Positions 946 through 19,490 of a stretch of 64,000 bases of DNA are shown here, in pieces. Numbering within the stretch: position 1 is the stretch's first letter; the number at the start of each line of letters is the position of its first letter. The stretch is taken from positions 56,792,001-56,856,000 of the forward strand of contig NC_083285.1 of the NCBI RefSeq assembly GCF_963506605.1, read 5' to 3'. Below the pieces are notes generated by a model. That model saw only the letters and a program-made list of their open reading frames with translations, had not been told where the DNA came from and did not search any database. Origin of the DNA: Zootoca vivipara. Lineage: Eukaryota. The position numbers were made by a program, and so were the translations under genes.

Positions 946-3424
946 ATTTCCGCTTTTATGAAGCTCATGTTTTTGTGAAGGCCATCAATGGATTTCATAT
1001 CCTCCTCAGACAGCTGGAAAGTAAATGCCTGTCAGGAGGAGAGAAAAATAATAATGTTGAGGTGCTTTTACCTCATGTCTTCCTTTTGCACCTCAGAGCT
1101 ATGCACCTTTTTCCAGCAACAGAGATATCAAAGCAAACTTTGCTACCACCTCCCAAAGTTTAATTCCTTCATTCAACAGGTTCAGTCCAGATGTCTTCCT
1201 ACTGAGGGAATTTTATATGCATAGTAATGTAGTTTGCAATAGAACAGGAGTGGGGAAACTGTGGCCCTCCAGATGTGGATGGATTCCAACTCCCCATCAG
1301 TCTCTGCCATCATGACCAATGGTCAGGAATGAGGGAAATCATTGTCCAGCTAATGAGGTTCTTCATGCAGTGCATAGCTAAACTACTGAACTTGCTCCCA
1401 TGGGAGACAGTGCCAGCCACCAACTTGGATGACTTCAAACATTAGACAAATTCATGGTGGATAAGAATATCAATGGAAGCTAATCATGTTGGCTGCACTC
1501 TGCCTTCACGGTCTGAGACAGTGATTCTTCTGAATGCCCACTGCTGGAGACTCCTCCAACATCTTGAGTCCCCAAACCAAGATGTGCGTCTTCCTTCCCA
1601 CACAAGTCATGTGACCTGTGAGATCACAGTGTCCAAATGATGTCGTTTTTCGGTATTGCTTTTAAATGGATTTCTATATACTGCTTTACCTGGGCATTTT
1701 CCTCAATTCGTTTTCTGGTGTAGGTCTTCACCAGGACCACCAGGCCGCGCTGCAGTTGGTAGCGAATAGCCACGAGAGCTGGGCTTTTGTTGTACTTCTT
1801 GGCGATCGCAACCAACAAAGGGTCTTCAAGCAGGACAGGAGTGTTTGTATCTATCCTGCCGGAGAGCAACGTGGAAAGAAGGTGTGTTTCTGGTGTCCAG
1901 AATATATAAATCTCACTCTGAAATTAATTCAGTATTGGCCTACTCCATCCAATATACACTAAATATTTTGTATTTAAAGCTTGGTTAGTCGATTTGACCC
2001 ACCTGTGGGACCCAGGTGGCGCTGTGGTTAAACCACTGCGCCTAGGGCAGGGGTGTCAAACTCAAATTCATCGGGGGCCGCATCAGCAGTTTGGTCACCC
2101 TCAAAGGGCCGGTTGCATCTGTAGGACTATGTGTCCACTCTTTATTATCATAAATTATTGTCACTGCATTCAATTATTACTGTTTTTTGTAATAATGTAA
2201 GTAATAACTAGCTCTGAAAGCAGAAACATAGTCAGAATAATGGCAAGTAGATATTCAAATGTACAATTATTGTACAATTTATTGAAAAATGATTTTTGGT
2301 AACAGACAGTATTTTTTTTTAACATACAAATATTGCCAAACGCTTGGAGCTGCTGTTCAGGAAGATGGATTTACAAGGGTCCCCCATCATCCCCCTGCGC
2401 CTCACAGGGTTCTCTGGGGAGAGGGGCTTGGGTGTGGGGCTGAGTGAGGAAGCCTTCAGTCCTTCCTCATTCCTGCTGGTTGGGGGGGGGGCAGAAGGGG
2501 GCTGGGTGGGGCTCCTGCTCTGGCGCTTCATGGAGCAGAGGGCAAATGTTCTCTGCACTGCAAGCCTATGTATCTTTAATACCCAATGGAGCTTAGGTTT
2601 GTATAAATGGGTGTGGAAGTGCAGCCTTGGGTTGAGCCTCATAAGTCATACGATATGCAATGTGAACACAAGGGACCATGGATCCAGTAATCAGCAAAGC
2701 ACGCAGGTATCTAGGACAAGTAAAAATGTTTTATATTCAACAAATTCTCAAACCGCTCTACTTTAGGTTACAGGTAGGTAGCCGTGTTGGTCTGGATCGA
2801 AGTAAAATAAAAAAAATTCCTTCAGTAGCACCTTAAAGACCAACTAAGTTTTTATTTTGGTATGAGCTTTCGTGTGCATGGTATCTGAAGAAGTGTGCAT
2901 GCACACGAAAGCTCATACCAAAATAAAAACTTAGTTGGTCTTTAAGGTGCTACTGAAGGAATTTTTTTTATTTTACGCTCTACTTTAGAATATTCTGTTG
3001 CAGCTAGCTGCAGCCTGCAAGTTAGTCTATTGGTCGATCCCTGCGAGGCTCTGCCCTTCTGGCCCCGCCCCCTCTCCCTGTGCGGAAGTGAAGCCGGAGT
3101 TTAACCCTTTCCGTAACGTTAGTGGCTGCTTCTGTTCGTTCCTCAGAAAACGGACCATATATCTCCCTAAAAAAAGCTCAACTCAAGCAGTCTCTCTGGA
3201 GTTGGCCACCCCTGATCTATATAAACTATCCAGGGAGGAATGGAGGGCTGCCTCCCTCCTGCCACCCCTCCCCTGCCAGATAATATGCCATTCTTCTCCG
3301 CTCCTTTGCTAGCCGCCCACCCCTTCCCCCTCCCCTTTTTCGCCAATCAATCCTTCTCCATTTGGGAAATTTACAGGAAACCCAAATTCGCTGTCCTTGT
3401 TGGGTGAAGCAGATTTTGAAAAGC

Positions 3425-3466
<42 letters not shown>

Positions 3467-6400
3467 AGTGACACCCTGTGTGTGATTAAATGTCTTGAAA
3501 TCTGATTCTGATTTCCTGGGGAATCAGGAGGAGTTGATTTTTTCCTCCCCCCCCCACTTGGATTGAAACCTTTTTAAAAAAAACTCCCATTTAAAGGCAG
3601 CCCGACCTCAGTTTCTCCACTGTTGCTTTTCTCCCACCCCTCTCCCTTCCCACACCCCTCGCTGCTCTTTTGATCCCTCCCAGTGAAGCAACCCTTCATT
3701 GGGTAGTTCAGAGCCAGCCAGCGAGAGGGAGAAGCAGCAGCAGCAGCCAGCCCTGCCTCTGCCGCTCATTCCGGCGCCTCTGGAAGCCGCGGCTGCGGCT
3801 CCAGCGCGCTTGTCTCCTCTAGCCAGAAAGGGAGAGGGGCTTTGGAGGACTTACGGAGCTTCCGGACGAACGGCGACAAGGACAGCTTCGTCGGAGGAGA
3901 CGACGCGGCAGCGGAGCGCGTTGCCACCGCCGCCACTGCCCCGCCCCACATTCAACCACCGCGCCAAAAGCGAGCGCGAAGTTGCGAGAGGTGGGGTTGG
4001 GGAAGGGAGCGGCGGCGGGCCATCTCGCGAGAGTAAGAGGCGAGAACGGTTTCCCGAAAGGAGCCCCTGGGAGCTGTAGTCTCCAAGCGGAGTGCTCCCC
4101 GCGCGCCTCCAGATAGCGGCCTGTTTGTCAGCGCGGCGCTTCAGCAGCAAGGTCCCGCTGCTGGGTCCTGCTGGCTGGGGCGCTCGGCGGGCCACATGAG
4201 GAGGTCTGGCGGGCCGCATTTGGCCCGCGGGCCTTGGGTTTGACACCTGTGTCCTAGGGCTTGCTAACCACAAGGTCGGTGGTTCGAATCCCTGTGACGG
4301 GGTGAGCTCCCGTTGCTTGGTCCCAGCTCCTGCCAACCTAGCAGTTCGAAAGCATGTCAAAATGCAAGTAGATAAATAGGAACCGCTACAGCGGGAAGGT
4401 AAACGGCGTTTCCATGTGCTGCTCTGGTTTGCCAGAAGCGGCTTTGTCATGCTGGCCACATGACCTGGAAGCTGTACGCCGGCTCCCTCGGCCAATAATG
4501 CGAGATGAGCGCGCAACCCCAGAGTCGGTCACGACTGGACCTAATGGTCAGGGGTCCCTTTATAGTCGATTTGAATTAATATAAGTCTTTAGTATCGTAC
4601 TCTCCCCCTCCAATAATAAATCACGAGCTCATACGTTGCACACGGAACATTCTGTAGCCAAAATGATAGCATCCATGCACAAAAGAGAGGTCTTTTTCTT
4701 TGCTTAAGTACAATTCATATTTGGGGGTGGGGGGAGACCTAAGGATGGAAAGAAAGGCCCAAGGAATCCCGTGTGCCTGTTGGAGAGTCGATATGGAAAA
4801 GAGGGAGGGAGTTCAAATGAAATGGAGGATCCTGGAAGAATACATAGCTCATTGACTGGAAAGAGAACTCAATATTTGTTGCTGGTCCCACTTGTAAAAA
4901 ATAAGCATTTAAGTCGTTTCCAATATAGATAAATACAATACAATTCAAAATTCTGAGAAAAAACAAAACAAGCTATGTAAAAAGAGAAATGCTATAAATG
5001 CATCTCTACCATTCTATTGCTTAAAGCAACATCTATATATATATAAATGTAAAAATCGTGAAAGTGTGTGTTCCACTTTTCTCCGTAACCGCTTGACCGA
5101 TCGTCCTGAAATTTTGACACAACGATCCAGGCCACTCCCCGAGCGTTGTTAGGGACAAAAATCCCTCAAATCACACACCTGGCCAGGTATAGACCTGGTT
5201 TTCCACCAAGTCAAACAGCACCCTCAAGTGGCGTTATACCCTCCTCCACTCCCTCCCTTCCTGTGAAATCTAAGCCACACCCACAAACCAAATGACATCA
5301 CCAACCAAGCAACTGAAACTACCAAGGCGGCCATTATCAGACCCCTAGGCTCCTGTCAGGCTACTAGGCTCCCACTAGGCCTGGGGGGGGGAGGGAAGAG
5401 GGCAAGCGCCCAGATCGCAGGTCGCAGCACTGCCTTTGTTTTATGTAGCCCCCTGCCAGGCCCCACTAGGCCCGGGGGGGGGGGGAAGAGGACAAGCGCA
5501 TGGATCACAGGCCACAGTACGACCTCTGTTTTATGTAGGCCCCTGCCAGGCCCCCACTCCCTCGGCTCCATTTTACAGACTAGGCCTCAGCTCTACAGCC
5601 CTTTAAATACTATCCCGAATGGAGCCCTGGGTGGGAGGTGGGGGGAGGAGGAGCCCAAATAGGTCATGGGCTGACATAGGGTGGGGGGGAGCAACTGTCC
5701 AACAACCACCAAAACAGCCATTCCACCCCCAAAGCCCAAGCCCAAAGCCTCTCCCAGCGGCTGCATTAATAAACGCCTGGCAGCATTAGGCAGTCGTTCA
5801 TCATTTCTCCTAACACGCACTTGGGGGCACAGCGAGGGGTTTTCACTTTATAATTTAGTGGGCGTTAAGTAAGGGCAGTCATGCCCCCTTTAACCTAGGC
5901 TTTACCGTATATACTACAACTGATTACAACCCTCTGTGTTTTTTTTATTTTAAAAAAACAACCATGCACTTTCTCTCCCCAGTTTAAGTCCTCAGATATT
6001 TGCAGTGGCCACCCCCCACCCCATTTACAATCCCCTACCTTCCCCTTGCCACTTCCTGGGGTTTTTATGGAACTGAACAACTTGGGTGCTTCAGAACACC
6101 CTTGCAGGGCCAGACAGAGGCCCTGTTTTTAAACCTTTGGTTACTTTTTTCATTTTACTGATTGTGAATATGCTGACCGAGGCCCCCTTTGGATTCGGAG
6201 GCCCGCGCCAAGTGGCCCATATGACCCCCTCCTTCTGTCTGGGTGGGCCTGTCTGTTGCTATGGGGCTGTGGGGCTTCGCTATTTGACCCCTCCATCAGG
6301 ATTCTTTAAGTAGTTCTCTGGGTCCCAGGGCACATCATCACCCCCGATCCTTAATCTAAAGGGGCCCCTGACCATCAGGTCCAGTCGTGACCGACTCTGG

Positions 6401-9400
6401 GGTTGCGGCGCTCATCTCGCTCTATAGGCCGAGGGAGCCGGCGTTTGTCCGCAGACAGCTTCCGGGTCATGTGGCCAGCATGACAAAGCTGCTTCTGGCG
6501 AACCAGAGCAGCGCACGGAAAAACCGTTTACCTTCCCGCCGCAGCGGTCCCTATTTATCTACTTGCACTTTGATGTGCTTTTGAACTGCTAGGTGGGCAG
6601 GAGCTGGGACCGAGCAATGGGAGCTCACCCCACTGCAGGGATTCGAACTGCCGACCTTCTGATCAGCAAGCCCTAGACTCTGTGGAGTAACTCACAGCGC
6701 CACCTGGGTCCCTGGCCAGACAGGGTCTGGGCCTGTCTGTTGCTACGGGGCTGTGGGGCTTCGCTATTTGACCCCCCCCCCCATCGGGATTCTTTAAGTA
6801 GTTCTCTGGGTCCCAGGGCGCATCATCACCCCTGATCCTTAATCTAAATATATAGAAATGTTCACGATGCAGGGGCCAATGTATGGAGATACAGGGGGGA
6901 GGGGACAACAGAGGGCTAAGACAAAAGTGCATGCTTGGAAATAGAACCCAGAACCTAACAGTTCCTTCTCCAAGGGTGGGGGCCAAGGTATGGAGATACA
7001 TGGGAAAGGGGCCAACACTCCCCAGGGACAACAGAGGGAAGGGTATCCTACTGAAACACAGGGATGAGCCGGGGTGGAGGGAGGAGGGGCAGGATACGTC
7101 ATGGATCAGGACGGGGGGGGGGGAATCACAGGAAAGAACCACAGCAACACGTGGCCAGGTCAGCTAGTTAAAGATAAATGTAGATATGATTTAAAAACAG
7201 CACAAAATTTCAGGAGCAGAAAATATTAAATAGCCCCCTGCCTGAAACATTTAAAAACATACGTGTCACAGATGGGTGTTGGCTACTCCCGAGTAAGCAC
7301 TCCACACCTCCTCTGGATTTTCAGAGTTTTATTGTGCATGCTATATACAGTGGTGAGATGTCTCAAATCATGTCTGCTCTGCATGGGGCAGAAGCCCGCA
7401 ATAGCCTCTGGCGGGCTCTGACCCAGCCTTTAAGACTGGTCCCCAAAATGCCCCTCCTACTGGCGCTATGGGATCCCCATTGTGTCAAACCTTTCTCCTC
7501 AACTTCCTCTGATTCTTCCCTCTCCTTTCCACCCTCTGATGCAGCTGGCTCCACCCCTTCTTCTCTGCTTCCCAACTGCAGTTGAGGCTCCAGTATGCTG
7601 CTAGAGCCCTGGAACCTCCTTCCTGCCTTGATGCTCTTGCTGCTGCTCTCCCATCTGATGGAAGTAAGCAGAGTGGGCTGCTCTCTGCAAGCCCTCTCTC
7701 TTACAATACGTTTGGGAGAAGTCAAGCAGTTATATATTTAAAAAAACTCTTTAGTAATGGAAATGTTTCTGAGAATGTCTAAAATGGGAGGGGGAGAGCT
7801 TTGTAGATCTCTCTCTGGAACAAGTCCCTCAATTGTGGGACCACTACAGAAAAGGCCCTGGTGCTGGTATTCACCACGAGGATCTTTATTAATTGTGGGA
7901 CCAAGAATGCAACCTTCAGAGCTGATGTGGATGCTGGGGAATAGTGGGCCTAGGTGGTCCCTGAGGTGGTCCCCAAAGGTTTGGCTTCATCTCTTACCAG
8001 TTTGGGTCCCTTTGGGATCCTAGGACACTATATCCTTCCAGGATGATATTGTTTGTCTTGCAGAAGGCCAGCAGCTTGCTTTGGTTCCGATAAGGATGGC
8101 ATTCAACCTGTAGATTCAAAATCCCCCAACACAACCCAAAAGTGAGAATTCAGATGAAAGAAGAATACCGTGAAATAAATGAAAGAAAGAAAAGCAGAAC
8201 CATGCTATTATTTTTTGAAATATCCAGCTGTTACCTTTCTTAAAGTGTGTTGTGTTTTCTGATGTATCAGAATCTTTAGATGAGCATTCTTGCATTTGTG
8301 GTTTCCATTGCCACACTCCTCTTCTGTGAAATGTGTGTTAGCTGGACATGGGGGACAGGGCTTATTCCCCCACAATCTCTTGTCACCCTAGCCCTGTTGA
8401 AAATATCCTGGGCACACTGTCCTGCCTGCAGTGTCTCTATTTAAACCCACTCAATCTCTGAATTTTCTATGTTGAGCAAAAGGTCTGATGGGAGATTTAC
8501 CTGGCTTTCCATCAACATGAGAAGATGCCTCTATATCAGGCTTTCTCAACCTCAGCCCTCCAGATGTTTTGAGACTACAATTCCCATCATCCCTGACCGC
8601 TGATTCTGCTAGCTAGGGATCATGGGAGTTGTAGGCCAAAAACACCTGGAGGGCCGAGGTTGAGGAAGCCTGCTTTATATCATCTGGGACTCTTCTTTAT
8701 CAGGGTCTTAAAAAAACTTTGGTCTCATTGGTTATATGATATATAGCAGTGTCCAAGTGAATCAGGGCTGCTCGGGTGCCTAACTCAAAAGCCCTTCGCT
8801 CCCCCCTTGAGAACTTCCAGAGTCCCCACAAGAGGCTGTGTGGGCCCTGATTGCTTGCAGGCCTCCTTCTACCTGAGATGCCTGTTTCAAACATTATGGA
8901 CTTCTTCACACTTCATTTTCTCTGAGGATTCAGAGGTCTTGATGAAATGGGAACCCATCACTGGTTCCAGGAATTGAGGGGAGTCCACCCCACAACTCAT
9001 AACCATATCTTCTTGTGAAAGGATCTGCAACCTTATAGACTCAAGCAAGTTTTTTCAGGGACTGGCTGTGTTCGTCAAAACAAAAGTCCTCTCACAAAAG
9101 AGCTGAAATAAAGAAGCTTTGAACAGTGCTTAGAGCAGGGGTTCCCAACAAAATTTTCTCGAGGACCCCTCATCGAGCCGCTATTGTGACAAGGACCCCC
9201 ATTAATTCCTAATCCTGAAATTAAAAAGTGAGAGCCAAATTAAGAGTCTTTTTATAAGAGTCCAGGGAGGAGGGAGGGGAATGGAGAAGACAGGGTACCT
9301 GCACAGAAGCACACATATGAAGCCGACGCGCGCGAAGCATCTTGGGGAGGTGAGCGTTAGTAGAATGCGCGTGCTGCCTCTTTGCAAAACAATAGTGTTT

Positions 9401-14441: not shown

Positions 14442-17400
14442 GGCAATAGAGAGGGATGATAAGTAAGGTGGAACATGATGTGCGGGAGTAACGCCCATAT
14501 GCCGAGGCGAACATACCCCCCGCCCCCAACATAAGATTACATTGCAACTCTGTATCATCCAATCTCTGATTGATAATTTTTTTAGCTGCGGTAAGATCAA
14601 AATGTAAAGCTTCTAGGGGGGAGATTCCAAAAAGCAAAAGCTTGGCATGGATCTTGTTCGCCCAGGGACTGGTGAATTCGTCACACCATAAACATTGGGC
14701 TAGATAATAATCAGGTAATCTGTGTGAGAGTGTTAGCCAGTAGTTGAAAACCCGTAGAAGTGTCTCTAGCGAGGGGACCTTCAGTTCCAGATGTATAGCC
14801 GCATTGCTCACACATCAGGGAAGTTTCAACAGGCGGCGTAAAAATTGATTTTGGAGGGTCTCAAGAGGGGAAAAATTTGCCAAGGCAGCCCAAAGTGGTG
14901 CAGCATAAGCGAATATGGCAGCTATTCTCGCATTAAACACCTTCAACCCCGAAGGCACATGCAGAGCCCCATCTGTGAAATAAAACTGGAGAAGTGGAGA
15001 AAATCTCTCTTTGTTAAAAGAGAGATATTAAAAGCACAACTTCAGGCAATACCAATGAGACGGAAACATGGAAGGTGCCTAAAGAAGCCAGGGTGGCTAT
15101 CTAAAGAACTTTTGACTGAGTTAAGATTTAAAAGGGATATGTACAAAAAATGGAAAAGGGGGGAAATCACCAGAGAGGAATTCAAACATATACCCAGCAC
15201 GTGTAGAGACAAAGTCAGAAAAGCTAAAGCACAGAATGAACTCAGGCTCCCCAGAGAGGTTAAAAGCAACAAAAAGGGCTTTTATGGGTATGTCCGTAGC
15301 AAAAGGAAGAACAAGGAAACAGTGGGGTCACTTAGAGGAGAAGATGGTGAAATGCAAACAGGGGATAGAGAAAGGGCAGAACTCCTCAATGCCTTCTTTG
15401 TCTCAGTCTTCTCCAGGGCCAGAAGAACTACATCCAAGAGTATTAAAAGAACTGGCAGAGGTGATTTCAGAACCACTGGCAATAATCTTTGATAATTCCT
15501 GGAGAACAGGCGAAGTTCCAGCAGACTGGAGGAGGGCAAATGTTGTCCCTATTTTCAAAAAGGGGGAAAGAGAGGACCCAAACAATTACCGCCCAGTCAG
15601 CCTGACATCAATGCCAGGAAAGATTCTAGAGCAGATCATAAAGCAAACAGTCTGTGAGCACCTAGAAAGAAACTCTGTGATCACTAAAAGTCAGCATGGG
15701 TTTCTGACAAAGTCATGTCAGACTAATATGATCTCATTTTTTGACAGAATTACAAGCCTAGTAGATGAAGGGAACGCTGTGGATGTAGCCTATCTTGATT
15801 TCAGCAAGGCCTTTGACAAGGTGCCCCATGATATTCTTGTAAAGAAGCTGGTAAAATGCGGGCTAGACAATGCTACCATTCAGTGGATTTGTAACTGGCT
15901 TACTGACCGAACCCAAAGGGTGCTCATCAATGGCTCCTCCTCATCCTGGAGAGTAGTGACTAGTGGGGTGCCACAGGGTTCTGTCTTGGGCCCAGTCTTA
16001 TTCAACATCTTTATCAATGACTTGGATGATGGGCTTGAGGGCATCCCGAGCAAGTTTGCAGACGACACCAAATTGGGAGGGGTGGCTAATACCCCAGAGG
16101 ACAGGATCACACTTCAAAATGACCTTAACAGATTAGACAACTGGGCCAAAGCAAACAAGATGAATTTTAACAAGGAGAAATGTAAAGTACTACACTTGGG
16201 CAAAAAAAATGAAAGGCACAAATACAGGATGGGTGACACCTGGGTTGAGAGCAGTACATGTGAAAAGGACCTAGGAGTCTTGGTAGACTACAGACTTGAC
16301 ATGAGTCAGCAGTGTGATGCAGCAGCTAAAAAAGCCAATGCAATTCTGGGCTGCATCAATAGGAGTATAGCATCTAGATCAAGGGAAGTAATAGTACCAC
16401 TGTATTCTGCTCTGGTCAGACCTCACCTGGAGTACTGTGTCCAGTTCTGGGCACCACAGTTCAAGAAGGATACTGACAAGCTGGAATGTGTCCAGAAGAG
16501 GGCAACCAAAATGGTCAAGGGCCTGGAAACGATGCCTTATGAGGAACGGCTTAGGGAGCTGGGTATGTTTAGCCTGGAGAAGAGAAGGTTAAGGGGTGAT
16601 ATGATAGCCATGTTCAAATATATGAAAGGATGTCATATGGAGGAGGGAGAAAGATTGTTTTCTGCTGCTCCAGAGAAGCGGACACGGAGCAATGGATTCA
16701 CACTTCAAGAAAAAAGATTCCACCTAAACATTAGGAAGAACTTCCTGACAGTAAGAGCTGTTCGACAGTGGAATTTGCTGCCAAGGAGTGTGGTGGAGTC
16801 TCCTTCTTTGGAGGTCTTTAAGCAGAGGCTTGACAGCCACCTGTCAGGAATGCTTTGATGGTGTTTCCTGCTTGGCGGGGGTTGGACTGGATGGCCCTTG
16901 TGGTCTCTTCCAACTCTATGATTCTATGATTCTATGATTCTAAGTGCTTGGGACACGGTTTTAGCTTTATTGAGGAGATATTGAATTTGTGCTTTCCATC
17001 TCAAGTTTTGTTGAAAAAATATGCTTAAATATTGGAATTTGGAAACTTGTTCCACTGTTGCTCCATCGAGCTTCCACTTGTATTGTTTTCGGCTTCTGGA
17101 GAAAATCATTATTTTGGATTTAGAATGGTTGATGGTTAACTGATTGGTTTGACAATAGGGAACAAAGATCTTTAGTGCTCTATTTAGGCCAACTCGAGAA
17201 TAGGAAAGAATTACTGCCTCGTCTGCATACTGAAGCAGTGGGCAGCGATAATCCGCAAGGCGGGGGGCATGAATATTGACGAGCGACTCGATTAGGGGTT
17301 TTCTCATATCACTTATATACAAATTAAAGAGATAGGGAAGCTAGTATACAGCCTTGGCGGACTCCCTTATTTATAGGCACCGAATTCATGAGTTCACCTG

Positions 17401-19490
17401 CTGGAGTTAGTCTCACTCTGGCAACTGATCCCTCATGCAATTGAATCATAAGCCCTAGGAGTCTTCTGTCAATGCCCCAGGTAGCGAGTTTCACCCATAA
17501 GGTGTTTCTAGGGATGCTGTCAAAAGCTGCCCTCAAGTCGATAAAGGCAGCACATAGATGGCCCCGACTAGGGGTAGAGTATTTCAGTGCAAGATGGTAA
17601 AGAATTATAGCGTGGTCCGTTGTGGAGCGATTGGGTCTAAAACCTGCTTGTTCATGACCAATTAAGTTGGACTTTTCTGACCACTGGGTCAATTTGGACA
17701 GAAGAAAGCGGGCATAGATTTTCCCTAGGATTGAACTAATGTTACGATAGTTCGTGGGGTTAGCAGTGGATCCTTTTTTGTGAATTGGGATAATAATAGC
17801 TTCCTTCCATGACTTGGCAATGAGACCTGTGGTGTTTATAGCATCGAAAACTTTGGCCAGAATTCCAGCCCACCACTCAGGATGTGACTTAATGGCCTCC
17901 GCTGGGACCAAATCGGGCCCGGGAGCCTTACCCACTTTCAGTTGACATATCAAGTCTAGGTGGCGAAATGGGTAGATGGCAAAACAGGTGCTCCAAGCAG
18001 GCAGATGGTGCGTCCACCTGTGAGAAGCACTTCCTCAAGAACTGCTCCCAAGTAGGAGCAGGGATAACGGCCAGGGAGTATCTTCTCACTCTTCTATTAA
18101 TTAGTGACCCAAATTCACGTGATCTATGCGATTTGGATGCTGCAATTAAAGCCTGCCGGCGATACGATTGCCAGGTGCGTTTAGCCTTTGTCTGGGCCTG
18201 TTTATAGGCCGTTTTGGCTTGAAAATATGTAACTGGCAGGTTGGTAGCACCTGAGACCTTGTACTTGTTGTAAATTGAGCGCAAAAGGGTTCTAGCTTGT
18301 TTACACTGAGAATCGTACCAAGGGGCACCAGAGTTATACTGTCTGCGATTTACCGCTTGGGGAGGTATCGTAAAGAAGGCAGTAAGATCCACCATAAAAT
18401 GATTAAACAGCCCCAATAGTACATTTGGGTCATGGGAATCAGAAGCTGTATCAGTTAGCTGCACACTGATTTCTTTTTGATAAACGTCCAAATACAATTG
18501 ACCTTAGACCAATTTATTCCTCTCACTCCAGTCGGAACGTTGGAATCTATTCGGATTGGATGTCTGTGCTCGACTGAATGCCAATCCAGAGAGAATGTGG
18601 CTACTAAGGGGAGGTGATCGCTAGATTGTATATTGTCGACCTTAAATGAAGAGACATTCAGGAACAAATCCCTCAAAATCGAGAGGTAATCTACCATAAT
18701 ACACTGTTGGATTTTATGCCTAGATGGGTGTACTCCCCCGGTACATCTGGGGGGCACCTGCCATTCAAGGGGACTAGATTTAGACAGATGGCCATTTGAT
18801 AGAGAAGCACTCTAGCCTTGTTTACTCTGGAGTCTTTAGAGGTTCTCCCTATGGCTTGTTCCAGTTCATAGTTGTCAAGACATGGGTCAACCCACCATTT
18901 GGCTTTATTCAAGGATTTCCAGTTGGCTGAGGTACGGGCATTAAAATCCCCTCCAATTAAGGATTGAGTATTGGGATACTTGACGCGGCATGATAATAGA
19001 TGGTCTCCTAGTATTTCCCATCTAGAGCGAAGTTCAAGGGACAAACCTCCTGGAGGGAGGTAAACATTGGAAATTAGCCATGAAACCTTTCCCCCGGATA
19101 TCAGCCCAGATAAGACATAAGGCGAGGAAACCTGTACTAAAGTATGTTTGGTATGTAACTTAAGCGAGTTACCAATTACAAGACCACATTTGGGACAGCC
19201 TCCTTTCAAGGAGGGGAAAGCAGGGAGTGTTAGGAGGTCGAATCCATTTATGTCAATTTCCTCCTCCTTCAAAATATAGGGAGAGGTGGGCAGGTGTTCC
19301 GATGCACTGAGCCCGAAAGAGGAAGCTAAGGGACACGTGCAGCGGTTAAACAGTGGTCCTTCAATCACTTTGATTGACGTCCCTCAAGTCCAAATGCTCC
19401 CAAGATCGAGGGACCACCAATAGGGTGTTGTGGCCACTCCAATGTTCCCACCCACAACACAGGGTCTGGTTGCCAGGTCCCACCGCAACA
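14442..19490 (-). mobile_element. Degenerate APE-endonuclease/RT LINE (RTE/RTEX-like), interrupted by CR1
   Basis: Endonuclease motifs NVYLPP, GGDFNAR, SSDHLP; RT motifs KAPGPD, QAGFR, FIDLRAAFDS, GVRQGCIL, YADE. Frame rejoins across the CR1 (VSQAL|LQFYFTDG...). Truncated at both ends. Confidence 0.85.
14997..16941 (+). mobile_element. CR1 LINE, 5'-truncated, RT domain open
   Basis: ORF 15236-16858 with [35 protein letters not shown]; (ATTCTATG)n tail; TSD AAGTG at 14992-14996 and 16942-16946. Confidence 0.95.

Follow-up and report, generated by a model that had tools for sequence, protein, structure and literature searches.

Gene capture that leads to multiple copies is reported to be rare among the cut-and-paste transposons of animals: for Pack-TIR elements, which are bounded by terminal inverted repeats (TIRs), the available text of Tan et al. 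(2021) gives four multicopy cases, or 1.4% (PMC8277862). It also describes Pack-hAT-N8_XT of a frog, which carries CAPSL's 5′ untranslated region (UTR) and occurs at three sites. HelibatN3 of Myotis bats carries the promoter and first exon of NUBPL, according to the accessible part of Thomas et al. 2014 (PMC4224331). For plant Pack elements, the available sections of two papers propose that open chromatin favours acquisition and report the occasional donation of exons or splice donors to host genes (PMC5861414, PMC8903248).

Here we analyze a 64,000-nucleotide stretch of the genome of the lizard Zootoca vivipara (NC_083285.1, positions 56,792,001 to 56,856,000, forward strand), hereafter the window. 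Its positions 2048–4251 are a non-autonomous hAT transposon lying inside intron 6 of a minus-strand aldo-keto reductase (AKR) gene, AKR-A. We consider it probable that this copy is a young, multicopy, non-autonomous Pack-type hAT, a patchwork of host DNA into which the promoter of the rotatin gene RTTN has been relayed and which is likely silent at this site. Pack-TIR capture and promoter-carrying elements are already known, and it is the relay together with the promoter bias that sets the present case apart. We found no report of this hAT family, of RTTN capture or of promoter relay across hAT terminus types in the literature searched, which left repeat databases and most subscription journals outside.

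The two TIR arms are complementary at 12 of 14 positions and lie within a 25-nt inverted pair. The features that define the element and its RTTN-derived part are:

2040–2047, no strand: left 8-bp target site duplication, matching 4252–4259 at 7 of 8 bases
2048–2344, minus strand: element terminus with TIR at 2048–2061, probably where the hAT has its 3′ end; two AATAAA signals on the minus strand, at 2283 and 2146; common to all 40 scored left-end matches
3756–4081, minus strand: DNA captured from RTTN, comprising its proximal promoter, its coding exon 1 and the initial 100 bp of intron 1; matches C8:52614499-52614824, with 19 substitutions in 316 columns
3849–3854, minus strand: RTTN exon 1 splice donor, intact, with GT at 3854–3853
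3855–3927, minus strand: the 73 coding nt of RTTN exon 1, ending in phase 1; GTG takes the place of the start codon in the window copy
3960–3969, minus strand: E2F-like 10-mer
4023–4032, no strand: TCTCGCGAGA palindrome (CGCG motif)
4187–4251, minus strand: GC-rich element terminus with TIR at 4238–4251
4252–4259, no strand: right target site duplication, paired with 2040–2047

A genome search with 3480–4190 as query, for which 40 of 1076 first-look candidates (a figure that is not a copy number) were scored, gave 17 near-full matches, the window copy included, which we call family A. These copies share the same 14-bp imperfect TIRs, measure 1.6–4.4 kb and are spread over nine contigs, none of which is contig C8, where RTTN lies. 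Sixteen of the 17 are flanked by perfect, distinct 8-bp target duplications, that of the window copy being 7/8 identical. Substitutions relative to the window copy amount to 0.14–3.2%; the closest copy, L007 (0.14%), is the only one to share a nested 209-bp palindromic insertion with it, which implies that the element moved after that insertion. The 8-bp target duplications and short TIRs are features of the hAT superfamily. Those of multicopy Pack-TIRs are present as well, namely identifiable parents that are not transposable elements and have no flanking element, repeated transposition far from the parent, and no transposase.

A search with the left end of the element yielded 107 candidates, of which the best 40 were scored; they represent the top-scoring part of the family and not a census. 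Behind the same left terminus, loci L245 (C6:34.61 Mb) and L246 (C10:64.63 Mb) hold a broken minus-strand frame resembling the C-terminus of a hAT transposase, whose match to the hAT dimerisation domain (PF05699, E 0.0015, 18.7 bits) falls under the 21.4 cut-off. An upstream 218-aa frame in this remnant had no Pfam hit and matched only unrelated repeat proteins in a PDB search. We regard the two loci as candidates for the 3′ half of an autonomous ancestor. The position of the frame, on the minus strand behind the left end, indicates that the element likely has its 3′ end on the left and its 5′ end on the GC-rich right.

Segment 3690–4170 has a GC content of 66% and a CpG observed/expected ratio of 0.91, compared with 0.34 for the window. 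A preliminary description of this DNA had read it as a captured host CpG-island promoter with a first exon and donor in the sense orientation of AKR-A. Indeed, the CpG-dense segment, the palindrome and the minus-strand donor are all present, the orientation is as stated, and the parent search with the GC-rich segment that it had proposed leads to the 5′ end of RTTN. The parent is a single-copy CpG island on C8, a different contig from AKR-A, and an exact-motif scan of 80 kb detected no element ends around it. Minus-strand exons downstream of the parent match RTTN_N (E 1.4e-21 and 1.6e-06), and its own exon, translated over 24 codons, matches a Podarcis muralis rotatin record at the N-terminus, with similar starts in gecko and snakes. 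The rotatin N-terminus is conserved in gecko, snakes and mammals. These data demonstrate the capture of a CpG-island promoter, exon 1 and a genuine donor, and identify RTTN as the single-copy host gene from which they came.

The TCTCGCGAGA palindrome is inherited from the RTTN promoter and is the only match in the window, where 0.01 would be expected by chance. BANP binds CGCG motifs when they are unmethylated, as stated in the available text of PMC11472053. Only about 155 bp upstream of the RTTN start codon are kept in the window copy, and the codon itself is changed from ATG to GTG, as in 5 of the 17 A copies. The 10-mer at 3960–3969, which we assume to be E2F-like, was correctly noted as present in the preliminary description but is not captured host promoter sequence: it arose by substitutions in the element lineage, is absent from the parent and is complete in only 6 of the 17 A copies.

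The RTTN piece occurs in at least 46 copies with four terminus types, families A to D; judging from TIR appearance, we take A and B to be of the Charlie/Buster subgroup and C and D of the Tip100 subgroup. Family B comprises a 622-bp form, with 25 junction-pattern matches (at most one mismatch; control 0), and one 1486-bp form. Family C is represented by two copies holding about 1.1 kb more of RTTN intron 1 and family D by one copy, L020. The latter was considered as the host parent and rejected, as its TIRs and 8-bp duplication mark it as an element in its own right. Farther upstream in the RTTN island (L021:1860-1920) lie a second motif that we presume to be CGCG and one that we presume to be ETS-like, both kept by B and lost in A, C and D.

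We aligned the RTTN piece of all 30 loci from the genome search and built a midpoint-rooted tree with rough bootstrap values. Common to families C, D and A are a deletion of 7 bp next to the donor, an insertion of 5 bp, several substitutions, and one upstream breakpoint together with its filler, whereas B is parent-like at the diagnostic indels and lies 2.8–3.4% from the parent, compared with 5.7–8.1% for C, D and A. The tree splits the parent and B from C, D and A at 100/99 and places D beside A at 91/86. D and A also share the intron-side junction, A retains six bases of the terminus bordering the piece in D, and the long A copies contain more of D's neighboring cargo. From the shared indels and breakpoints we infer that RTTN was captured twice, separately in B and in a C/D/A lineage in which the piece was likely relayed from element to element. 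The relay is thus well supported, and capture from a host gene, as initially put forward, holds for the origin of the piece, which was itself probably inherited from other hAT families and not taken directly. Some bases missing from L020 are still present in A, so that the donor would be a D-like ancestor of L020.

The GC-rich segment might instead be ordinary element backbone that merely resembles a promoter, as its repetition in so many element copies could suggest, but it encodes the conserved rotatin N-terminus and its parent stands at the head of a single RTTN gene, so that we attach practically no credence to this account. An RTTN locus acting as a capture hotspot, from which each family took the promoter independently and without relay, has more to commend it, as B is an independent capture, the locus having been captured at least twice, and centlein exon 1 is likewise found in two terminus types. 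It is nonetheless very improbable, and as regards C, D and A the comparison of copies largely refutes it: these families share breakpoint, filler and indels, and A keeps D's terminus remnant along with neighboring cargo from other contigs. Several points do weigh against our preferred account of a relayed Pack-type hAT. Family D is known from a single copy and C from two, the D-like donor ancestor implied by the bases that A keeps and L020 lacks was not found, the node uniting D with A is not starred, and no intact transposase gene or autonomous copy was found.

We propose that a C-type element would first have taken up RTTN, that the piece was shortened in a D-type element and that it then moved into A-type ends, family B having captured it independently and later. 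Copying may have occurred during excision-gap repair or fork restart, the template being either open CpG-island DNA or another element, and a transposase acting in trans could then have spread each mosaic by cut-and-paste. In family A, a piece derived from BTBD6 meets the D-derived piece at a (CA)n run found in both sources, as would be expected of template switching at microhomology. Gap-filling and fork-switch capture models, as set out in the available text of PMC8277862, are in line with such switching.

Sister elements with the same ends suggest a broader preference for promoter-like cargo. Twenty-six of the 40 scored left-end matches are non-RTTN relatives, and 22 of these 26 have both ends with an 8/8 target duplication. 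A 300-bp stretch with GC of at least 55% and a CpG ratio of at least 0.75 is present in 20 of the 22, versus 23 of 196 flanking pieces and 2 of 42 window pieces; the 22 elements are not independent and represent about five cargo types. The three cargo types traced (3/3) each lead to a single gene-start-like locus without element ends: (i) the centlein promoter, exon 1 and donor, carried by L188, L190, L192, L200, L251 and L253, with parent L206 (C16:3260075); (ii) cargo in L186, L197, L249 and L250, from a single CpG-island parent at C2:50310620-50312001; and (iii) cargo in L191 and L230, from a single CpG-island parent at C16:30813185-30814466. The parents of (ii) and (iii) hold donor-like and CCAAT sites. 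Counting copies with the same TIRs and comparing their cargos, as the preliminary description had suggested, gives 17 A copies and sisters carrying other CpG-rich cargo, and its proposal of a Pack-type hAT is borne out by hAT-type ends, host-derived cargo and a transposase-free interior.

The centlein cargo is also present on C18, in an element with different ends (L209/L211), and the occurrence of this cargo in two terminus types likely reflects a second relay. More promoter-like cargo types with the same ends were observed in L195, L196, L247, L248 and L255-L261, in L114, and in L252 and L254; one of them has 11 copies in the sample. At G000:C1:32758148-32766500 (L003, L215), three Pack-type hAT copies with different cargo, one of them with family-B ends, lie within about 9 kb.

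The remainder of the window copy is similarly composite, with host or other-repeat matches accounting for nearly all of 2341–4123, in agreement with an element without transposase:

2341–2542, plus strand: cargo from C12:59312838-59313027, 83% over 206 nt; the source lies ~600 bp within a GC-rich gene-start-like region
2548–2766, minus strand: cargo from the BTBD6 3′ flank, C1:10172683-10172908, 93% over 226 nt; resumes at 2976 and continues to about 3025
2767–2975, no strand: nested palindromic repeat insertion with a 13-bp duplication (2754–2766 / 2976–2988)
3026–3214, plus strand: remnant of another small hAT with its own TIR at 3199–3214, from repeat comparison
3233–3464, minus strand: cargo from just upstream of BTBD6, C1:10176604-10176837, 91.5% over 236 nt, with CCAAT and GC boxes, ending in the (CA)n run
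3439–3747, plus strand: promoter/5′-UTR-like cargo from C14:37331719-37332027, 79% to the source and 90% to L020, passed on by a D-type element along with the RTTN piece
3750–3755, plus strand: six bases left over from the terminus that adjoins the RTTN piece in element D; the RTTN parent lacks them
4082–4123, no strand: GC-rich filler common to C, D and A, marking their shared breakpoint

The C12 source is 3 kb from an Ion_trans exon (PF00520), a position from which the cargo would belong to that gene. The two BTBD6-derived sources are 3.7 kb apart on C1. The nested insertion is presumably Penelope-like, and its empty form is seen as an RNA joint between 2753 and 2976. Downstream of the C14 source, a Pfam scan of 130 open frames returned nothing above cut-off; the nearest plus-strand coding exon, laminin-N (netrin-like), is 36 kb downstream, and the gene assignment is uncertain. 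A genome search with the filler gave no host source. GC-box and ETS-like words at 3060–3120 were considered as a further captured promoter and rejected, as they are part of the different small hAT.

Exons 1–7 of AKR-A join on the minus strand as an open frame with GT–AG ends and encode a protein of the Pfam family Aldo_ket_red. Intron 6 spans 1856–7997, the exon 7 acceptor is at 1855 and exon 8 is located near 954–1025. Together with the TIRs and duplications, this exon structure confirms the 2.2-kb bounded element with mosaic cargo in intron 6 that had been described at the outset. The exons on either side of it are:

1690–1855, minus strand: AKR-A exon 7, 166 nt, beginning in phase 2
7998–8107, minus strand: AKR-A exon 6, from open-frame GT–AG exon joining

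The element splits a host short interspersed nuclear element (SINE), which we take to be Sauria-type, and RNA reads from intact SINE copies join 2040 to 4253. This joint was examined as a possible empty allele at the AKR-A site and rejected, as the reads derive from other copies of the SINE.

The RTTN promoter could be active at this site, producing an internal transcript that is spliced to AKR-A exon 7, or disturbing AKR-A through premature polyadenylation or cryptic splicing, with a product that would be non-coding. The sense orientation, the intact donor and CGCG motif and the island-level CpG density of the window copy are compatible with such activity, as are several minus-strand polyadenylation signals and acceptor-like sites between the donor and exon 7 and the transcription of a sister copy, L011. 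We nevertheless judge it quite unlikely. When about 6 in 100 of each of three RNA runs were aligned to 1500–8300, the 3855→1855 splice joint was not among the 15 joints listed (242 others), and AKR-A exon 7 reached a depth of at most 2, which makes this a test of low power. Sense depth over 3770–3996 was 0.15, 0 and 3.0, and the letters in these sparse reads are those of other copies or of the parent. The promoter is cut about 155 bp upstream of the ATG, with the parent's second CGCG motif and the ETS-like motif lost. RTTN exon 1 ends in phase 1 and exon 7 needs phase 2; a chimera begun at an upstream ATG would meet a stop at the second codon of exon 7, whose AKR frame contains no Met. Given the lost ATG and the phase mismatch, an RTTN/AKR-A chimera would stop at once and yield no protein; no frame-compatible coding fusion with a start codon was found. 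The predicted splicing of the captured exon to exon 7 is thus not supported, and the mutated start codon, the short upstream segment and the element-derived E2F-like site also speak against it.

A silent copy is also what the substitution pattern suggests. Transitions at CpG sites are more frequent than those at other C/G positions, about 3-fold in A copies (50/1349 versus 27/2351) and about 15-fold in B copies (27/720 versus 3/1269), the counts being per copy and not per event, and this excess suggests that the copies of the RTTN piece are methylated in the germ line. Some observations run counter to silence or to a settled insertion. The excess in A is only about 3-fold, with shared changes counted repeatedly; the CGCG motif and donor are intact in the window copy and its CpG density is still island-like; and the normal exon 6–7 joint is likewise absent among the joints listed, so that the RNA test is a weak one. 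Contigs from a DNA run show only non-window letters at 2460, 3937 and 4093, which indicates that other, sampled animals may lack the AKR-A insertion. Overall, the insertion appears to be a neutral intronic passenger, and a function at the AKR-A site is unlikely; even if real, a fusion would be of little consequence, as no protein is possible.

Transcription was observed for the sister copy L011 (G000:C2:14825208-14827198). Minus-strand RNA reads cover about 2400–3300 in two runs, up to 48 deep, and carry five letters jointly found only in L011. Its RTTN part is almost without reads, though similar enough to pass the 95% filter, and five molecules end at window-equivalent 3284, inside the BTBD6-derived piece. 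These data hint that transcription starts in the BTBD6-derived cargo and runs to the element's polyadenylation signals. Against a start inside the cargo, L011 is flanked by two C2H2 zinc-finger genes, one of which ends 1.3 kb upstream on the same strand. The transcribed copy also gives a hint of working start sites seeded by hAT-carried promoters. The hATs of this lizard would then form a promoter-trading network, in which a host CpG-island promoter placed beside the 5′ end of a non-autonomous element and facing the element's own polyadenylation signals is favored, is swapped between families that differ in their ends and seeds working start sites throughout the genome; we regard this broader idea as speculative and rather unlikely.

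Around the insertion site, AKR genes form a minus-strand tandem cluster of at least three full paralogues (window 12752–1690, 33495–21785 and 48704–36900), and a further AKR exon 1 is found 17 kb beyond the left edge of the window. Retrotransposon-like reverse-transcriptase stretches occupy 15000–16940 and about 17300–19000, upstream of exon 1 of AKR-A, which we take to be CR1-like and another of the type of long interspersed nuclear elements, respectively.

The lizard elements allow one promoter to be traced at single-base level, beginning with its gene and passing through several types of element. They constitute young, divergence-dated material for asking if capture tracks open chromatin, if CpG islands stay free of methylation at the new sites to which they are copied and if they ever give rise to start sites. 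In practice, reads from the RTTN, centlein and BTBD6 promoters can mis-map in lacertid methylation, chromatin-accessibility (ATAC) and RNA data.

The elements described here resemble plant Pack-MULEs and Pack-TYPE elements, including Pack-hAT, for which the available sections of PMC5861414 and PMC8903248 give GC-rich, lowly methylated, broadly expressed parent genes as a plant feature; they differ in that those systems belong to plant genomes, where occasional donation to host genes is a feature. With the gene-carrying Helitrons of Myotis, as portrayed in the accessible part of PMC4224331, they share the bias toward promoter, first exon and first intron, sequential capture and amplification; those Helitrons, unlike the cut-and-paste hATs of the lizard, are rolling-circle elements without TIRs or target duplications and reach far higher copy numbers. 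The hobo_AC non-autonomous families of Anolis carolinensis likewise take up foreign DNA and recombine between elements with different TIRs, but the available text of Novick et al. 2011 (PMC3014272) describes their cargo as genomic DNA with transposable-element fragments, whereas the lizard elements here carry gene promoters and first exons. Like Pack-hAT-N8_XT, as far as the available text describes it, the window copy belongs to a non-autonomous TIR element with host 5′ sequence, GC-rich cargo, a distant parent and several copies with distinct duplications; unlike it, one cargo is found here in at least 46 copies and four terminus types, and every element combines sequence from several loci as a mosaic.

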